From: Eledone cirrhosa
Lineage: Eukaryota
Assembly (NCBI GenBank): GCA_964016885.1
Contig: OZ024760.1
Location: forward strand, 682,001-746,000
DNA: 64,000 nt
Direction: 5' to 3'
Below, one piece after another: positions 4,135 through 62,680 of this stretch (its first letter is position 1; every line of letters begins with the position of its first letter). Both the position numbers and the translations under genes were made by a program. The notes beneath the pieces are model-generated. The model saw only the letters and a list, made by a program, of their open reading frames with translations, was not told the origin of the DNA and did not search any database.

Positions 4135-4207
4135 ATTCTATCTGATGAGCGATACCAGACGTTTCTGTTAGAATCGTCTAACTTCGCGAAACCTTGGGTA
4201 ATGGAAT
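4135..4207 (+). ncRNA. Type I hammerhead ribozyme motif
   Basis: ATTCTAT-CTGATGA-GCGA(...)TCGC-GAAACC-ttg-GGTA-ATGGAAT. Stem I 7 bp with one G-U pair, stem II GCGA/TCGC, stem III ACC/GGT, GUA site. Confidence 0.85.
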
Positions 4208-9180: not shown

Positions 9181-9484
9181 TTTTACCCTGTGAAATACAT
9201 TATGCTTTTATACACAATTTGTTGACTGTAAATGATACGTAGGATGTATTTTTATATATTTTTTTTATGTCAATATATTATTTTCATTGGTTTTGGTATT
9301 GTTTAATCACACCGTCAGGGTGATTATTCTATTATAATGCTTATATTCATATTTATATTTGTGTTATTATGTGTATGTGTAAATGTGTATATATATGTGT
9401 CAGAGTGAGTGTGGATATATATATATATATATATATATTAAGTTTTATTTCTGTATTATCTATTGTATGGTATTGTATATTGTA

Positions 9485-10339
9485 CTAGCAGTAAAGCCCG
9501 GCGTTGCTCGGGGTCGCTCAGTAGCTGTGTTAAAGTTACAATGTTAAGTTTCTTTCTTGGCTTAAAAACTGTAGTGTCTACTGTGCAGACTTGCATGTGG
9601 TGTTTTTGATTAATATTCCCTCAACCAACAATATGCCTTATGAAGTTAAGAAAACATAACGATAACCCGAATGTTATAACAAAAGAGGATGTTGGGAATA
9701 GAAACTGCACTGGTTATTTATTAACAAAGATCGAAAATGTAAACACTGCAACGCAGAGAAAAACATTAGCGTAACCAAATTATCAGTTATGTCTGTCTGC
9801 ACGCCTATATCACCTCTCTGCACGACTGTCTGTCTGCACGCCTATATCACCTCTCTGCACGACTGTCTGTCTGCACGCCTATATCATCTGTCTGCACGAC
9901 TGTCTGTCTGCACGCCTAACGACGAAATATTTGCTTGTTTTACGTAGTCTTTAAATAGACTTGTTTTCAAGTAAAAATATTGTTTTAAAATGCTTTTAAA
10001 TGGAAATGAAGCAAAACGGAAGCTTAGTGTTCGAACTGATGAATTTTGCAGGTCAATATTTTGCTGGCTCGACGAAAGCCAGCGTAATTGTTTACGTAAG
10101 CCGCTCAATGTAAACAGAACAAAGGGAAATAACTGATAACTTACGCTCAAAAATCGATACATTATATTCGATTTCGTCACATAGGGTGGGTCAATTTGAA
10201 ATTTTTTTTTTCCGATGTCTTCGCTAGGGCTCAATGTACAAGTATAGCAATTTCGGTGCAATTCCATGAGAGATTCTAAGAGGAGATGTGTGCCAAAAAT
10301 CGATAGACAGACAGACAACCACAGTTTTATATATATAGA
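9485..10339 (-). mobile_element. Non-autonomous Helitron, copy 1
   Basis: Minus strand begins TC(TATATATA) and ends with hairpin CCCGAGCAACGCCGGG then CTAG; inserted between A and T with no TSD; internal 36-bp tandem repeats and (CTGT)n. Confidence 0.85.
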
Positions 10340-10587
10340 TTATAATTCTCACATTGTATTACTATGTTGTATTTCAAGTATTAGATTTATATTGTACTTT
10401 TAACTTGGGTTTGTTTAATGTTTAATGTCTTGCTTGCTCTATTGCCCTATAGCCTTTATTTACAAATGCACCATATTAGGTTTAGCATGTCTTTCCATGA
10501 TAATTCTCCCAAATTTTCATAAATATCCATTCCATGTTCTTCTGAGTTTTGGCCTGTTCTGGCCGTTAATACCTCTTGTCTTTTTCC

Positions 10588-10632
10588 TTGCTCTGATGAG
10601 TCCTGGTTAATGGGACGAAACACTGTCAGCAA
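10588..10632 (+). ncRNA. Canonical type I hammerhead ribozyme motif
   Basis: TTGCT-CTGATGA-GTCCtggttaatgGGAC-GAAAC-act-GTC-AGCAA. Perfect core and GUC site, overlapped/followed by AATAAA, as in Penelope pLTRs. Confidence 0.9.
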
Positions 10633-10790
10633 ATAAAGATTTTTGATGTATTGAAGGCTTCTTTGTTTATTTTATATAATTTTTCGGCTCTGTTGGAAAA
10701 CATTGAGCTTTACCCTATACTGTCTTTTCTCTAATACGACGAGTGTGTGTTGACTCCAATGCACTCAAGTATTCTAATCTTATATATATA

Positions 10791-11747
<957 letters not shown>

Positions 11748-12542: not shown

Positions 12543-12734
12543 AACAAAGGAGTTGTGGTAAGGAACCAGATGGACCATAACGCACCAGAGTACTCAATAC
12601 TTAGGGTAGTAGAGTGAGTAATAGGAACATGTATGACCCCGACGGCAGAGAACAAGCCGTTTCGACGGCTATTTCTGGAGTCCAGAAATAGCCGTCGAAA
12701 CGGCTTGAGCTCTGCCGTCGGGGTCATACTTTTT

Positions 12735-12737
<3 letters not shown>
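12543..12737 (-). mobile_element. Fold-back (TA)n-inserted element, family A
   Basis: ~58-bp inverted arms (AGGAAC..GACCCCGACGGC..AAGCCGTTTCGACGGCTA) plus ~75-bp unique tail; flanked by (TA)n. Confidence 0.9.
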
Positions 12738-14892: not shown

Positions 14893-15071
14893 AGGAACAA
14901 GTATGACTCCGACGGCAGAGCTCAAGCCGTTTCAAGTCCAGAATTAGCCGTCGAAACGGCTTGAGCTCTGCCGTCGGGGTCATACTTGTTCCTATTACTC
15001 ACTCTACTAACCTAAGTATTGAGTACTTTGGTGCGTTATGGTCCATCTGGTTCCTTACCACATTTCCTTCG

Positions 15072-15073
<2 letters not shown>
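14893..15073 (+). mobile_element. Fold-back element, family A
   Basis: Inverted arms with a deletion near the apex; (TA)n flanks. Confidence 0.9.
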
Positions 15074-15607: not shown

Positions 15608-15934
<327 letters not shown>

Positions 15935-18079: not shown

Positions 18080-18264
18080 ACGAAGGAAATGTGGTAAGGA
18101 ACCAGGTGGACCATAACGCACCAAAGTACTCAATACTTAGGGTAGTAGAGTGGGTAATAGGAACCAGTAAGACCCCGACGGCTCAGCTCAAGCCGTTTCG
18201 ACGGCTAATTCTGGACTTAGCCGTCGAAACGGCTTGAACTCAGCCGTCGGGTCTTACTGATTCC

Positions 18265-18941: not shown

Positions 18942-18944
<3 letters not shown>

Positions 18945-19131
18945 AACAAGTAAGACCCCGACGGCTGAGCTCAAGCCGTTTCGACGGCTAATCGAGTACA
19001 GAATTAACCGTCGAAACGGCTTGAGCTCAGCCGTCGGGGTCTTACTTGTTCCTATTACCCACTCTACTACCCTAAGTATTGAGTACTTTGGTGCGTTATG
19101 GTCCACCTGGTTCCTTACCACATTTCCTTCG

Positions 19132-19133
<2 letters not shown>
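18942..19133 (+). mobile_element. Fold-back element, family A
   Basis: Inverted arms, apex ATCGAGTACAGAAT. Confidence 0.9.
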
Positions 19134-19898: not shown

Positions 19899-20099
19899 AG
19901 GAACAAGTAAGACCCCGACGGCTGAGCTCAAGCCGTTTCGACCGCTAATTCTGTACTTGCAGTACAGAATTAGCCGTCGAAACGGCTTGAGCTCAGCCGT
20001 CGGGGTCTTACTTGTTCCTATTACCCACTCTACTACCCTAAGTATTGAGTACTTTGGTGCGTTATGGTCCACCTGGTTCCTTATCACATTTCCTTCGTT
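19899..20099 (+). mobile_element. Fold-back element, family A
   Basis: Inverted arms, apex CTGTACTTGCAGTACAG. Confidence 0.9.
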
Positions 20100-36759: not shown

Positions 36760-37099
<340 letters not shown>

Positions 37100-43004: not shown

Positions 43005-43145
43005 GTTAAGTATTTCCGAGGGAAAAAGAGTACTCTATGTATAGAACAGAGCTATTTAATTAGAAAGTGAACAAAACAATATCTAGGGTCCTGAAACCTT
43101 TGGTAATGGAGTAGTTATATATTGTGTTGTTCACTTTCTAATTAT
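43005..43145 (+). mobile_element. Truncated fold-back relative of the 4135 hammerhead element
   Basis: GAAACC-ttt-GGTA-ATGGA...ATATTGTGTTGTT as at 4188-4225; inverted TAGAAAGTGAACAA / TTGTTCACTTTCTA. Confidence 0.6.
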
Positions 43146-43164
43146 ATATTCTAGTCGATCGACT

Positions 43165-43315: not shown

Positions 43316-43353
43316 ATTATATATATATATACATATACATATATATATATATA

Positions 43354-44255
43354 GCAGACCTCGCAGGGACTCTATATCTTTATGATATATTGTTTTTGTT
43401 TATGCCACGAAACTACGTAGTCGAGGAATTTAGGAGCAGTTTAGGTATGATACATTTTATTACTAATTATATCTAAATGTTTCTTCTCTCTTCATAATGT
43501 ATTTTTAACTCTGATACTGGTTCAGTCTAGTTCAACTGAATTGGTCTGTCCCGGTCATTCATTGAGCAACATCGGTGAAGTTGGCACCCTTAACTCACAG
43601 TTGGGTGCGGATGCATTCATATATATATGTGTGTGTCCGCATGTATCTGTGTGTTTCTAAATATATTGTTAATAACTCCCTCTGGTCGAGCAATCTTTGA
43701 AGTGTGGGGACAACTGGAAAGCTTCCATTACTCATACTTCTAGCCTTCTTCACCACCTCTTCTGCGGCCTCGATATGAATACCCCCTCCGCCTCCGTGGT
43801 ATTTTCTTCGTGGTTATAAGAGGCTCAGCTCTGTTTCTCGACCGTTATATCGCGTGACTATCTCCCCCTCCGCCTTTTGGGATTCTTTATCACGTCGTGT
43901 AGACGCGTTCTTGAGACTAGTAAAATGAGGTATCCTCTTGATAAGTCGGCAGACCTCGCAGGGACTCTATATCTTTATGATATATTGTTTTTGTTTATGC
44001 CACGAAACTACGTAGTCGAGGAATTTAGGAGCAGTTTAGTTATGATACATTTTATTACTAATTATATCTAAATGTTTCTTCTCTCTTCATAATGTATTTT
44101 TAACTCTGATACTGGTTCAGTCTAGTTCAACTGAATTGGTCTGTCCCGGTCATTCATTGAGCAACATCGGTGAAGTTGGCACCCTTAACTCACAGTTGGG
44201 TGCGGATGCATTCATGTATATATGTGTGTGTCCGCATGTATCTGTGTGTTTCTAA

Positions 44256-44262
<7 letters not shown>
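43354..44262 (+). mobile_element. Partial tandem (595-nt period) hammerhead retroelement, retrozyme/PLE-like
   Basis: 314-bp direct repeats 43354-43667 and 43949-44262; hammerhead at 43933-44022 TCCTC-TTGATAA-GT(c)GGCA..TGCCAC-GAAAC-TACGTA-GTC-GAGGA; (TA)n both sides. Confidence 0.8.
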
Positions 44263-44298
<36 letters not shown>

Positions 44299-44336: not shown

Positions 44337-44697
<361 letters not shown>

Positions 44698-51524: not shown

Positions 51525-54500
51525 TTTTTATCTCTTTCTCTTAATTTCGAGTACATTTTTTTTGACCGGCCACCTCCTGATGGCAAGGTTGTAAAAGAAA
51601 AGAAATTGTCATCCCTTGAATCGCAAGAATGTTTTGCAAATTTTGAAGGTGCCAGCTATCGCAGCCATTTCTAGACTATGAATTAGGGAGCTGCACTTTT
51701 TGTCCGCAAATCCAAGTTCAGTCATACTTTGGTCCAAGCGGGTTGGTATATAACCCGTAGCTCCAATAATGATGGGTATGAAGCTAAAGGTGTATCTTGG
51801 ATACTGGATTTGTAAACTCCTCATCAATGGTCCGTAGATGTCCTCCTTCTCCTGTATTTTTCTGACAACGTTTACATCAAGTGGGCAGCTGATCTCCACA
51901 ACAGAACACGTTTTCAATGTGTGGTCCCAAACAACAATATCAGGCCGGTTGTGCTTTAATTTGGTGGCAGTTTTTATTTTCAGGTTCCACCAGTATTCCT
52001 TAGTGCCATCTGTCTCAATATATTCTTCCTCGTTTGTTGTTAATTTTGTTTTCCGAAGTGCGTTCCAGATGGTTCTAGCTATCCCATCATGTCTCATGGG
52101 GAGGTAGTAGCGAGATGACATTCTTTCGCAGCTGGCAACAATGTGGCTTACATCCTCGATCTTTGTTTTACATAGCCTACATTTATTTTCAGCTGCTGGC
52201 CCTCCTCTTTTGTGCAGCAGATATTTGGTAGGGAGTTCTTGTTCCTGTATTGCATAGAGATATCCCTGAAGGTGTGATGTCATAAACTTGTCGGAACTCC
52301 ATGCCAGGCTTTTTGAGTGGATTATCCCCTCTATGGTCTGTGTTTTACGTCTCTAGTATCCATGCACAACTTTTTCTGTAAATTGGTCAATTTTTTTATC
52401 TTGTTTGAACATTGAATAGGATCTTCCGATTTCTCTGGGTGAGAGATTTATATCAGGCTTTATTCCATATCTCTCCTCCAGATCAGTCGCTATTCTAATG
52501 ATATTTTTTTTTCATGCTCATAAACCTGGGCAAGATGGTTGCCAACCTTTTTCCTCTGTTGAAGGTGTTGCTTCAGTGTTACTATCCGGGTCTCATATGT
52601 TGTTAATATTGATTTTAGATCCCGGCCACCTTCCTTGCGTGAGAAGTATAGCCTATCCACATCACCATTGATGTTAAAGTTCCCAGTAACACTGAGAAGT
52701 TTTCGAGTTCTAACATCCATCTCACTTAGTTCTTGCAATGACCAGTTCAGCAGGCCAAATGTTGGTGTTAGAATTGGCACAGCATAAGTATTGTGGGCAA
52801 TGTATTTGTTGTACGCTGACAATTCTGATGACCATATTTTCTTTACTCCTCTGAGGTATTCAGTTCTGGTTCTCTCCTTATTTATGGGTCCATCATATCT
52901 GACATTCTCATCCTGTCCAAGATATCAGTAGTTGTCACCTGACTGCAGAGGTTGTATTGTCAGGCCGTTCATCTCTAGATTTCTAGAGGAGGGCACAGCT
53001 CTTCCACGTTTTACTGCCAAATATGCACACTTGGACTCACCAAATTTCATTTTTGATGTCGGTTGAAAATTGTGTAATGAGGACCAATTGTTTCTTGGTG
53101 TCATTGATATTTGGCTCATACAACTTCAGGTCATCAACAAAGAAAAGATGGGAGATACTTCTGGGCCCACTTCTTTGTCCACCTTGTTTCCTGAGTAGGT
53201 AAGATAGTGGATTCAGTGAGAGAACGAAGAGTAGCACTGACAAGCTATCACCCTGAAAGATGCCCTTCTGGTAATGTATCTTATCAGTCTTAACTTGCTC
53301 CTTCTCACCTCTAAGGATCAAATTGGTGTACCAGTTCTTGGTCAGGCGTTCAACAGCAGCTACCAATGGTTGTGGGACTTTAGCTAACTGTAAAGCCTTA
53401 ATAATCCACCCATGAGGTACACTATCAAATGCTTTTTGATAGTCCAGCCACACCACAGTCATGTTTCTGCGATTCTTTGTTGTTTTTTCCTGAATCATTT
53501 TGTTAGTTAGTTGGTGATCTATGCAACCCCACACCTCCCTCTTTCCACCAGCTTGCTCAGGTGTTATGATGTTGTTGGAAGCACAGTGATCCTGTAAGAA
53601 CAGGTTAAGGCACCCAGTATATAATTTATACATGATGTTCTGGCAGGCTATTGGGCGGTAATTTTTAGCAAGGGTGGTTTGGCTATTTTGGGGAATGAGG
53701 AGAGTAGTGGCAGTTGATAACCATCTGGGCAGTTCTTGTGTGCCTTTAATGGTTTCTGTAAACAGCCGTATGAGATCTTGCCGATAGAAAGTGAAATTCT
53801 TCAACCAGTATCCTGTAATGAGGTCTGAGCCTGGCGATTTCCTATTCGACATTTTTGTAGAGCTGTTGTCAGTATTGACCCATCTATGTCATATTGTTTT
53901 GTCTGGACATGTTGGCAGTAGTCTTGTTCCGGTTCTTTTAGCCAATTAGCTTGTCTGTTGAATCCGTCATCCGTTTCCCATACAGATCTCCAGTAGCTCT
54001 CAACCTGTTCTTTTGAAGGGGTGTCGTTTATAGGGACTGAGCTTTTGCCACCGAAGCTGCGATAAACTGATTTAGGGTCTCTGGCAAACAATCTATTTAG
54101 CACTTGTTGTTTATGTGCTGTTGACTTATATTTTAGTCTTTCTGTTGTAGCTGTGAGTTGTTGTTTCAACTGGTGTAATTTGGAGTTCAAAGTTTTAAAT
54201 TTTGTATCTCCAAATCGTCTCTCTAACTTTTTTTTTTTAGGTCTTCCTGGTGTCGTGTGAAGTTGCTCTCTATGTTGCATTTCATAACGACTGCGATGTG
54301 TGAGATACTTCGTCTCAGGGACAAAATTTTGGTTTTTAAATTTCGCATCCACGTTGGTTCAGGCTTACTTGATTGCGTGGTTTTAGATGTGTGTTATATG
54401 ATAGCAATGTGACAGCTGAAACATATAACAAAACATTAAGCGTTTCAAATGTCGTTTCTACACCTTTAAATCGTATAGCCTTCAGATAATTGCCAGCTAT

Positions 54501-55807
54501 TTCGTTCACCGCTTCCAATTCCAATTTAGTGGGTTCTTTACTGATTCTGGTGTTGTATGGTCTGTCACTCACATTAAGGCTGTGTATCTCTTGAAACATA
54601 TCGTTCCATATCACTTGTAGGGTGTCCACGAGTTTTTGGTGCTCTGTTTGTTCAGTAGAGTCCTGAATTTAAGCTCCGTTGTTGATGTGGTGACAATTAC
54701 TACTAGAGTTAGCTGACCTTTCTCGCTGTTCTTCAGTGGAAGTGGGATGGATTTCAGCAAAATTGTTGGTGAGCTGTTCACTGTTAGATTTAGCTGGCCA
54801 TTCTCTTTGTCTGTCAGTGGAGATGGGGTGGTTGTCTACAAGGGCTGTATTTGTAGTATCACTCAATTCCGTTAGATGTATCAATTTACATCTAATGATA
54901 CGTTTTGCCTGTTCATTTAAATGCTTTGGAGAAAAGTCTAATTCTGGGTGTTTGGAGTTCCATAAAGTTTTTAGCCTTTGCATAAAACCGAACTTTTGGG
55001 GTTCAGATTGTTTGTATGCTTCATATAATACTTTGTTAAGCTCGTAGCTCCACTGTATACAACGGTTGTAGTTGCGATTTGGTCGAAGGAGACTTGTACT
55101 TTTTGCCATGATGAGTTCGTCTATTCACTAATATTTCGTATTTATTTTTCAAAATAGTCGATGATCTTCTTTAAAAGTTTCGACAAAGTTCTGTCAGAAT
55201 CAAATTTAAAGTTATTCACAGCTTGGGTAATATTTCTTTTCAGTTAGTTTTTAATTCTACAACTGTGTTTTAAACGTTGTTCTTGAATCGTTTGAATCGA
55301 GAACAAAAAGAACCGTGACTTAGTATATTTCTTTATGAATGTAATATAATATAACAACGCTGTATTTAAAGTTTATGTATCATTCATATAAATAGGTGTT
55401 CTACAACTTATTCACAGTTCAAACACTTATGTTTTTGTTTCTGAATCGAAAACGTTACTTGTATATTTCTTTATAAATGTAATATAACAACGTTGCATTT
55501 ATATGTTATGTATCATTTATATGTTATGTATCATTTTTATGTGTATGTATCGTTCATATATCATAAGTGTATGTTTCGTTCATATATCATAAGTGTATGT
55601 CTCGTTCATATATCATAAGTGTATGTATCGTTCATATAAATAGGTGTTTTACAACACACTTACAGTTCAAACACTTATGTAGAATTATTGTATGTAATCT
55701 TACCGCGTAATGTAGCTCAACTTTTTCCAATATATGGTATGTTGCCTTCATGTAAGCCGTAATTACACACGTCCGATTATCGGACACTGACCACAACGGT
55801 CGCCATT
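51525..55807 (-). mobile_element. R4/Dong-clade non-LTR retrotransposon, near full length
   Basis: ~0.7-kb 5' UTR with internal repeats, one disrupted ORF, ~85-bp 3' UTR; (CATA)n on both sides. Confidence 0.9.
51609..55109 (-). pseudogene. Frameshifted RT + restriction-like endonuclease polyprotein
   Basis: N-terminal Myb-like W..ELN..Y..SEP..GFMQRL..LW; RT motifs KSPGSD, NYRPIAC, WLDYQKAFDSVPH, GIFQGDSLS, HLFFVDDLKLY, FGESKC; REL CRLC..HIVASC, RHD, NRPDIVV, EISCP; split over 7 ORF fragments. Confidence 0.92.
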
Positions 55808-62614: not shown

Positions 62615-62680
62615 TTTTATCTGATGAGAACACAATTTTTGTCCCAGGATGATTTTGTATTCGAAATGCGCATAATAAAA
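62615..62680 (+). ncRNA. Type I hammerhead ribozyme motif
   Basis: TTTTAT-CTGATGA-GAAcACAA..TTGTaTTC-GAAAT-GCGC-ATA-ATAAAA; palindromic ATGCGCAT stem III; in a ~205-bp element (62519-62725) with ~35-bp inverted ends. Confidence 0.85.

Follow-up and report, generated by a model that had tools for sequence, protein, structure and literature searches.

A retrozyme-like 909-bp insert with a U3-A8 hammerhead motif in (TA)n, probably a copy of a non-autonomous Penelope-type retroelement

Introduction

Two groups of described elements lie closest to the locus studied here. The metazoan non-LTR retrozymes form RNA circles of 170-400 nt (Cervera & de la Pena 2020, PMC7229834). More recent work gives retrozyme units of 51-972 bp, derives them from the pseudo-LTRs of Penelope-like elements, and reports that one of nine predicted retrozyme dimers was cleaved while the other eight were not (Li, Clavereau & Pollet 2026, bioRxiv 10.64898/2026.07.22.740005). 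The second group is the Penelope-like elements themselves. In Schistosoma, roughly 1,300 matches to hammerheads with a U3-A8 core pair have been traced through such an element (PMC4209133), and natural U3-A8 hammerheads are reported to be active in vitro (PMC3088659). According to PMC4209133, hammerheads of Penelope type cleave poorly in vitro and a palindromic stem III is a sign of cleavage as a dimer, a mode that is reviewed in PMC6765202. The Penelope-like element PAc of Anolis starts copying internally and inserts into AT-rich targets; uncut RNA was its main template in vitro, and mutants of the ribozyme left insertion unaffected (Frangieh et al. 2024, PMC11167929). Naiad and Neptune elements use microsatellite targets, (TA)n in the case of Naiads, which hide target duplications (Craig et al. 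2021, PMC8557442). Circles have been proposed as the template of Penelope-type partial tandems since 2014 (PMC4209133), and the question is unsettled.

Here we analyze a 909-bp insert within a 64-kb stretch of genomic DNA (the window). We conclude, with a probability of about 0.8, that the insert is a copy of a non-autonomous Penelope-type retroelement with a retrozyme-like build. The full account, in which a Penelope-like reverse transcriptase/endonuclease acting in trans copied a circular RNA into (TA)n, we regard as roughly an even bet.

Results

Layout of the insert

The insert consists of 1.53 units of a 595-nt repeat, arranged head-to-tail between (TA)n runs (Table 1). Its two 314-bp arms are offset by 595 and differ at two positions (43445 G/44040 T and 43621 A/44216 G; 99.4% identity), and the identity between them ends abruptly on both sides. 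Both flanks are (TA)n, and no target-site duplication is readable at the insert. The window is rich in microsatellites (43% is masked), and within the masked 64 kb we find no further copy of the unit.

Table 1. Positions of the insert, its ribozyme parts and neighboring repeats in the window
Feature	Position	Strand	Remarks
(TA)n target microsatellite, left	~43318-43353	.	adjoins 5' end of insert, 0 letters shared at junction
Arm 1 (0.53 unit)	43354-43667	+	5'-truncated within hammerhead stem II
First hammerhead, 3' half, lacking a core of its own	43354-43427	+	begins inside stem II, remainder kept
Parts of first hammerhead	GAAA 43409-12; palindrome 43412-21; GUC end 43422; stem I strand 43423-27	+	
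Predicted monomer, cut site to cut site	43423-44017	+	595 nt, 42% GC
Predicted long hairpin engaging 3' strand of stem I	43423-43493	+	family 3' end 43502 lies just behind
Predicted long hairpin	43592-43655	+	just ahead of the insert's 3' end position 43666/43667
Single-copy interior, 281 bp	43668-43948	+	48% GC over 43668-43932; ribozyme 5' half at its end
Complete type I hammerhead motif, U3-A8 core	43933-44022	+	predicted cut after 44017
Stem I of second site	43933-37/44018-22	+	5 Watson-Crick pairs
Core TTGATAA of second site	43938-44	+	
Stem II of second site	begins G43945-C44003; domain 43945-44003, 59 nt	+	6 pairs, one bulge, long extension
GAAA of second site	44004-07	+	
Stem III of second site	44007-16	+	10-nt palindrome
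Arm 2	43949-44262	+	3' end 245 nt beyond cut site, at AU-rich spot
(TA)n target microsatellite, right	~44263-44296	.	
Self-complementary repeat of ~190 bp, copies	12544-12736, 14894-15072, 15712-15903, 18080-18264, 18943-19132, 19900-20098, 36799-36999		

Nothing in the insert looks protein-coding: the longest stop-free frame has 83 codons and none of eight frames reaches the Pfam cut-off (best E 0.029), in agreement with the initial annotation, which had seen no convincing open reading frame. A 123-codon frame on the minus strand, read through its one stop, gave two HMMER matches among 1.84 billion proteins; both are internally repetitive and were judged spurious, and with the Pfam result we rejected a coding origin. 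The unit contains no reverse transcriptase (RT) or GIY-YIG frame, which separates it from an autonomous Penelope-like element. No autonomous partner of this kind was found in the window, where the only reverse transcriptase examined is of an unrelated LINE type, and the window holds no tRNA gene.

Some smaller motifs of the unit were noted in passing. The interior has a C-rich 12-nt motif twice in identical form (43782-43793 and 43864-43875), GC-box-like on the opposite strand and possibly a promoter. By eye, 43443-43530 looks like a splice donor at 43445 with a branch-like motif and a pyrimidine tract behind it; the donor G is T in arm 2, and splicing there would open no frame.

In much of this layout the locus resembles the non-LTR retrozymes: a non-coding head-to-tail unit with one type I hammerhead each and a GC content below 45%, a strongly self-paired monomer, a multi-copy family, and a length of 595 nt, inside the 51-972 bp range. 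It departs from those described in PMC7229834 in that 595 nt exceeds circles of 170-400 nt; moreover, it has a U3-A8 core and a 59-nt stem II domain where they have a canonical ribozyme, and it is inserted in (TA)n. The preprint calls a retrozyme 'active' when two complete ribozymes are present (bioRxiv 10.64898/2026.07.22.740005, in part); here there are 1.53 units and one complete motif. Because of this shortfall, and because its circles are putative, we file the locus as retrozyme-like and not as an active member. Head-to-tail copies with pseudo-LTRs are likewise formed by non-autonomous Chlamys elements such as MRC1, whereas Naiads and most Chlamys elements, as far as the relevant part of PMC8557442 goes, are without canonical hammerheads; this comparison is one of layout.

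The hammerhead motif and its core

The initial annotation placed GUC sites one unit apart, the second with full topology and the first truncated inside stem II, and all of this is borne out. The sites end at 43422 and 44017, and the second has three stems around its core, open at stem I, the full topology of a type I hammerhead. When any Watson-Crick 3-8 pair is accepted, a motif descriptor matches 1 of 3000 dinucleotide-shuffled versions of the unit (595 nt) on either strand, and none of the 3000 has a stem III of five pairs; the topology exceeds what chance gives.

Where the initial annotation does not hold is in calling the core TTGATAA decayed. It differs from CTGATGA at core positions 3 and 8 only, where C3-G8 is replaced by U3-A8 and pairing is kept; because the 3-8 pair is retained and U3-A8 is a known variant, the core reads as a compensated form and not as a product of decay. 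A family core of CTGATGA, which the initial annotation proposed to look for, is not supported either: in the three sequencing runs that cover the core (X1, X4 and X15), no other letter reaches 5% at 43938 or 43943, thus neither T>C at the former nor A>G at the latter. Two changes are listed within the ribozyme and no others: G43961A, by which a G-U pair improves to A-U, and a deletion of 2 nt at 43976, in the loop of stem II. Judged by sequence, the ribozyme motif of the insert looks intact, with one complete motif only.

Comparison with the pseudo-LTR hammerheads of Penelope-like elements (PMC4209133, in part; the U3-A8 hammerhead of Schistosoma Cercyon and the Drosophila virilis form) shows a close likeness: U3-A8, a 5-bp stem I, a G10.1-C11.1 pair, a bulge in stem II, a palindromic stem III suited to dimers, and a partial tandem. 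Unlike the elements described there, the unit is without an RT or GIY-YIG frame and is only 595 nt as a whole, its family is near-uniform and not highly variable, and its stem II extension is much longer.

The Rfam models find no hammerhead in the whole 64-kb window at gathering thresholds, and no hammerhead family is among the 22 matches at E <= 10; weak miRNA and snoRNA matches fall far under their gathering scores. We attribute the missed match to a limit of the models, since they also miss at gathering five motifs of the window that have the canonical core. A 24-nt pattern of the ribozyme has no match in metagenome, GTDB and viral contigs.

The five motifs just mentioned are type I hammerhead-like with CTGATGA, at 4142-4200 (+), 10593-10627 (+), 62621-62674 (+), 36606-36558 (-) and 26947-26899 (-). 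Two of the five pass a stricter descriptor, several end in TA or CA repeats, and the two on the minus strand are 94% alike over 135 bp.

The unit belongs to a large repeat family

We now consider the unit in public sequence data. Part of it is contained in 20 of the 24 listed runs, none of which is recorded as RNA; runs X21 and X24 share 0.00 of its words, although word share is no proof of absence. Runs X18-X20 (word share <0.2) were left out, and four runs were aligned to 43423-44045. In run X1, 1,702 contigs match the unit (567 at 99%+, 436 at 95-99%, 307 at 90-95% and 392 below 90%), some of the short low-identity pieces being microsatellite matches only, at 43619-43654. Summed X1 depth, which is not a copy number, covers 30 of 30 bins (~49,000 in the last bin and 106,000-582,000 elsewhere), and the share of X1 records that continue into unlike sequence is 0. 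In run X4 a single 621-nt contig spans the unit and returns 595, giving a closed loop of ~591 nt in which both junctions are crossed and no branch appears. This contig shows head-to-tail closure, for which tandem DNA and a circle read alike. The unit is thus a large, multi-copy repeat family: the initial annotation had named a single-copy unit and an unrelated 281-bp interior as ways in which its reading could fail, and the 1,702 contigs speak against the former, the depth in all bins and the closure through both junctions against the latter. The window copy carries letters at 43826 and 43889 that are absent from X1, which makes it unlikely that X1 comes from the same individual as the window.

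The ends of family copies recur on one side and vary on the other. Among the 12 of 83 loose-end rows listed, X1 contigs run into (TA)n after 43502 (8 contigs) and 43666 (3 contigs), and foreign sequence stands ahead of 43832 and, in run X15, of 43964; the window copy itself starts at 43949 in unit coordinates. The variable starts that had been anticipated for family copies are therefore seen in the rows listed, while family multimers, anticipated as well, are not resolved in the short contigs. As in PAc, 3' ends lie beyond the cut site at two recurring positions and targets are AT-rich; unlike in PAc, the 3' ends of this family are 164 nt apart and at AU-rich spots, against a 30-40 nt tail and an AC-rich loop, and the element is non-autonomous (PMC11167929, in part). 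What is expected of a non-autonomous Penelope-like element is found here, namely a partial tandem in a microsatellite target, with 3' ends that recur and 5' ends that vary (both from the 12 of 83 loose-end rows listed).

Could the arms instead be pseudo-LTRs of a longer, autonomous Penelope-like element, with the interior being captured DNA or the remains of a deleted body? Rotifers provide a case of unrelated DNA captured between pseudo-LTRs (PMC3846280, in part), the ribozyme is of Penelope type, and the loose ends seen are those of 12 of 83 rows listed. We nevertheless find this improbable: coverage of the interior is at the family level, X1 has a zero share of records that lead into unlike sequence, the X4 contig closes unbranched, the hammerhead core sits in the interior, the interior is predicted to pair with the arm (43754-43574, probability 1.0), and no convincing protein match is found.

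The matches under other organism labels raise a different question. At least half of the unit's words are contained in eight rows under six organism labels, and the 20 holder rows come from 16 studies, a spread that a viroid-like circular RNA moving between species would account for, as it would the single closed variant in X4. Set against this, depth is ~8 in X4 and 2-4 in X15, against an X1 sum of more than 100,000. Another sample of organism D, with 1.94 Gb of raw reads, yields five matching reads, all on the microsatellite-like part, and the X15 pieces are flanked by foreign sequence, which is what genomic DNA would show. These matches are best explained by a high-copy repeat carried over in traces, transfer of the unit between species is unlikely, and a viroid-like agent behind them is scarcely credible. 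A related and very improbable picture is that of a viroid-like U3-A8 circle of 591-595 nt, overlooked by standard searches, that parasitizes a Penelope-like enzyme, seeds TA microsatellites and crosses animal species; if it were true, the near-identical closed copies in other organisms' runs would be real.

RNA folding and its conservation

The predicted monomer folds at -182.9 kcal/mol (z -6.4, none of 100 shuffles as stable), whereas its reverse complement has a z of -0.6; folded as a circle it reaches z -8.2 (25 shuffles), with 34 G-U among 189 pairs. It is the first 300 nt that carry the signal: the tile 43423-43622 has z -6.6/+0.2 (+/-) and the next -4.3/-1.6. Interior tiles lack such a signal (z -0.8 and -1.3), and the ribozyme region alone does no better than shuffles (z -0.29). 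In 100 control tiles (up to 57,780), 19 have a strand below -3 and five differ between strands by at least 3, with a maximum of 5.5, and the gap between strands at 43423-43622 is larger than in any of them. For the family variants, we used 16 of 20 rows and dropped the four at 43637-43647 because unrelated microsatellite reads fall there. All six transitions at paired sites keep pairing (p ~0.04), and pairing is broken by two of eight variants at paired sites, both of them low-frequency transversions; unpaired sites, with 8 of the 16, are not enriched in variants (p 0.19). On these predicted structures, selection on the RNA of the ribozyme strand has modest support.

This evidence also bears on whether the unit is satellite-like and has spread as DNA, or is a local duplication of a monomer, with the ribozyme a relic. 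Local tandem amplification by unequal crossover is discussed in bioRxiv 10.64898/2026.07.22.740005 (in part), and in a young family with few variable sites an unchanged core says little against a relic. Folding on one strand only, the sharp 5' truncation with (TA)n on both sides, the recurrence of 3' ends at two positions and the copies that begin instead at 43832 and 43964 (12 of 83 loose-end rows listed) all run counter to it, and we hold it to be quite improbable.

Predicted cleavage as a dimer

Taken singly, the ribozyme folds weakly: stem III has a probability below 0.1, and active folds lie 1.1-10.7 kcal/mol above the minimum and are never the minimum. In transcripts ending at 44017-44100, the two palindromes are predicted to form a cross stem III with probability 0.93-0.97, and the cross hammerhead, in which the second core acts on the first GUC, lies 3.1 kcal/mol above the minimum versus 6.0-9.7 for the single fold. 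The cross stem III is lost in the predicted fold of the full 909-nt RNA. With the second core able to reach the first GUC, truncation would not necessarily have inactivated the first site. Since the pairing arises in the growing transcript and vanishes from the full-length RNA, cutting would occur in the dimer, while the RNA is still being transcribed. Self-cleavage at the GUC during transcription is thus what the folding models predict.

A possible route of insertion

The preferred reading, a retrozyme-like copy made by a Penelope-like enzyme, suggests the following course of events. In a tandem transcript, the two stem III palindromes would pair in a 10-bp helix and give a double-hammerhead form, which would be cut at the GUC; the freed monomer would refold with its ribozyme disrupted and would presumably be ligated into a circle. 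A Penelope-like enzyme would then nick (TA)n and start copying inside the RNA, at +245 here and at +80 in other copies, in each case just behind a long hairpin. Copying would halt after a variable distance, here 909 nt, having passed through both cut sites. As a separate observation, the 3' strands of the hairpins ahead of both family 3' ends (43470-43484 and 43644-43658) have an 80%-alike 15-mer in common, which may mark where copying starts.

Because copying ran through both cut sites, the template would have been either a circle closed by ligation or a tandem left uncut. Two family-minor letters are common to both arms, G43553/44148 (~1% of X1 depth) and G43366/43961 (~18%). These fit a circle, and would equally result from a uniform parent tandem. 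It is a serious possibility, though not the one that we favor, that the same family and enzyme worked on uncut linear tandem RNA, with the ribozyme slow or assisted by protein and no circle needed. The anole element mainly used unprocessed RNA and its ribozyme needed protein (PMC11167929, in part), the poor in vitro cleavage of Penelope-type hammerheads (PMC4209133, in part) agrees with this, and the active folds of the present ribozyme lie above the predicted minimum. On the other side, 5' truncation would shorten tandems in each round, so that length would have to be rebuilt, the monomer folds strand-specifically, and the arms have their family-minor letters in common, even though a uniform parent tandem would match these as well.

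Each arm has one private change, which corresponds to an age of ~0.9 million years (0.1-3.2) at the octopus rate quoted in PMC13282606 (in part), a figure that holds only for an octopus host, which the repeat motifs of the window suggest. The family is young, short and near-uniform.

Other repeats of the window

Several other repeats were observed in the window. At 9476-11649, a repeat of ~850 bp is present in two near-identical copies, 1305-1322 bp apart, and the 440-bp stretch between them holds the hammerhead motif at 10593, with short TA runs at both ends. An inverted-repeat remnant lies at 43040-43150, 200 bp to the left of the insert, and contains the hammerhead 3' half found in the 4142 family. 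By eye, 44340-44589 has inverted arms of ~60 bp around a decayed minimal hammerhead-like motif near 44440 and ends in (TA)n; it looks like another Penelope-type remnant. The self-complementary repeat of ~190 bp is present in at least seven copies within TA repeats and folds strongly on both strands. A broken non-LTR retrotransposon at 51609-55124 (-), with matches to RVT_1 and zf-RVT, may be of the R4/Dong type; it has 43-64% identity to the at least 120 relatives listed, among which a single cnidarian protein is the only one named.

Discussion

The initial annotation proposed a retrozyme-like element or a Penelope-type partial tandem. The anatomy, the family, the closure of the unit and the (TA)n junctions agree with this, and what had to be given up is the decay of the core. 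The element is of a known kind, with a variant core, and each feature of the locus has a precedent; the interest lies in the combination. In the literature listings we found no report of retrozymes or hammerheads from cephalopods, and the repeat libraries of the 2026 preprint or of PMC13282606 may contain the family unlabelled.

A high-copy family with segregating variants makes the question of the circle as template testable, by comparison of one arm with the other across many 1.x-mer copies. The U3-A8 ribozyme escapes Rfam, and descriptors that require C3-G8 or a short stem II would probably miss it too. With ribozymes escaping the standard models and descriptors in this way, present counts of retrozymes may be too low.
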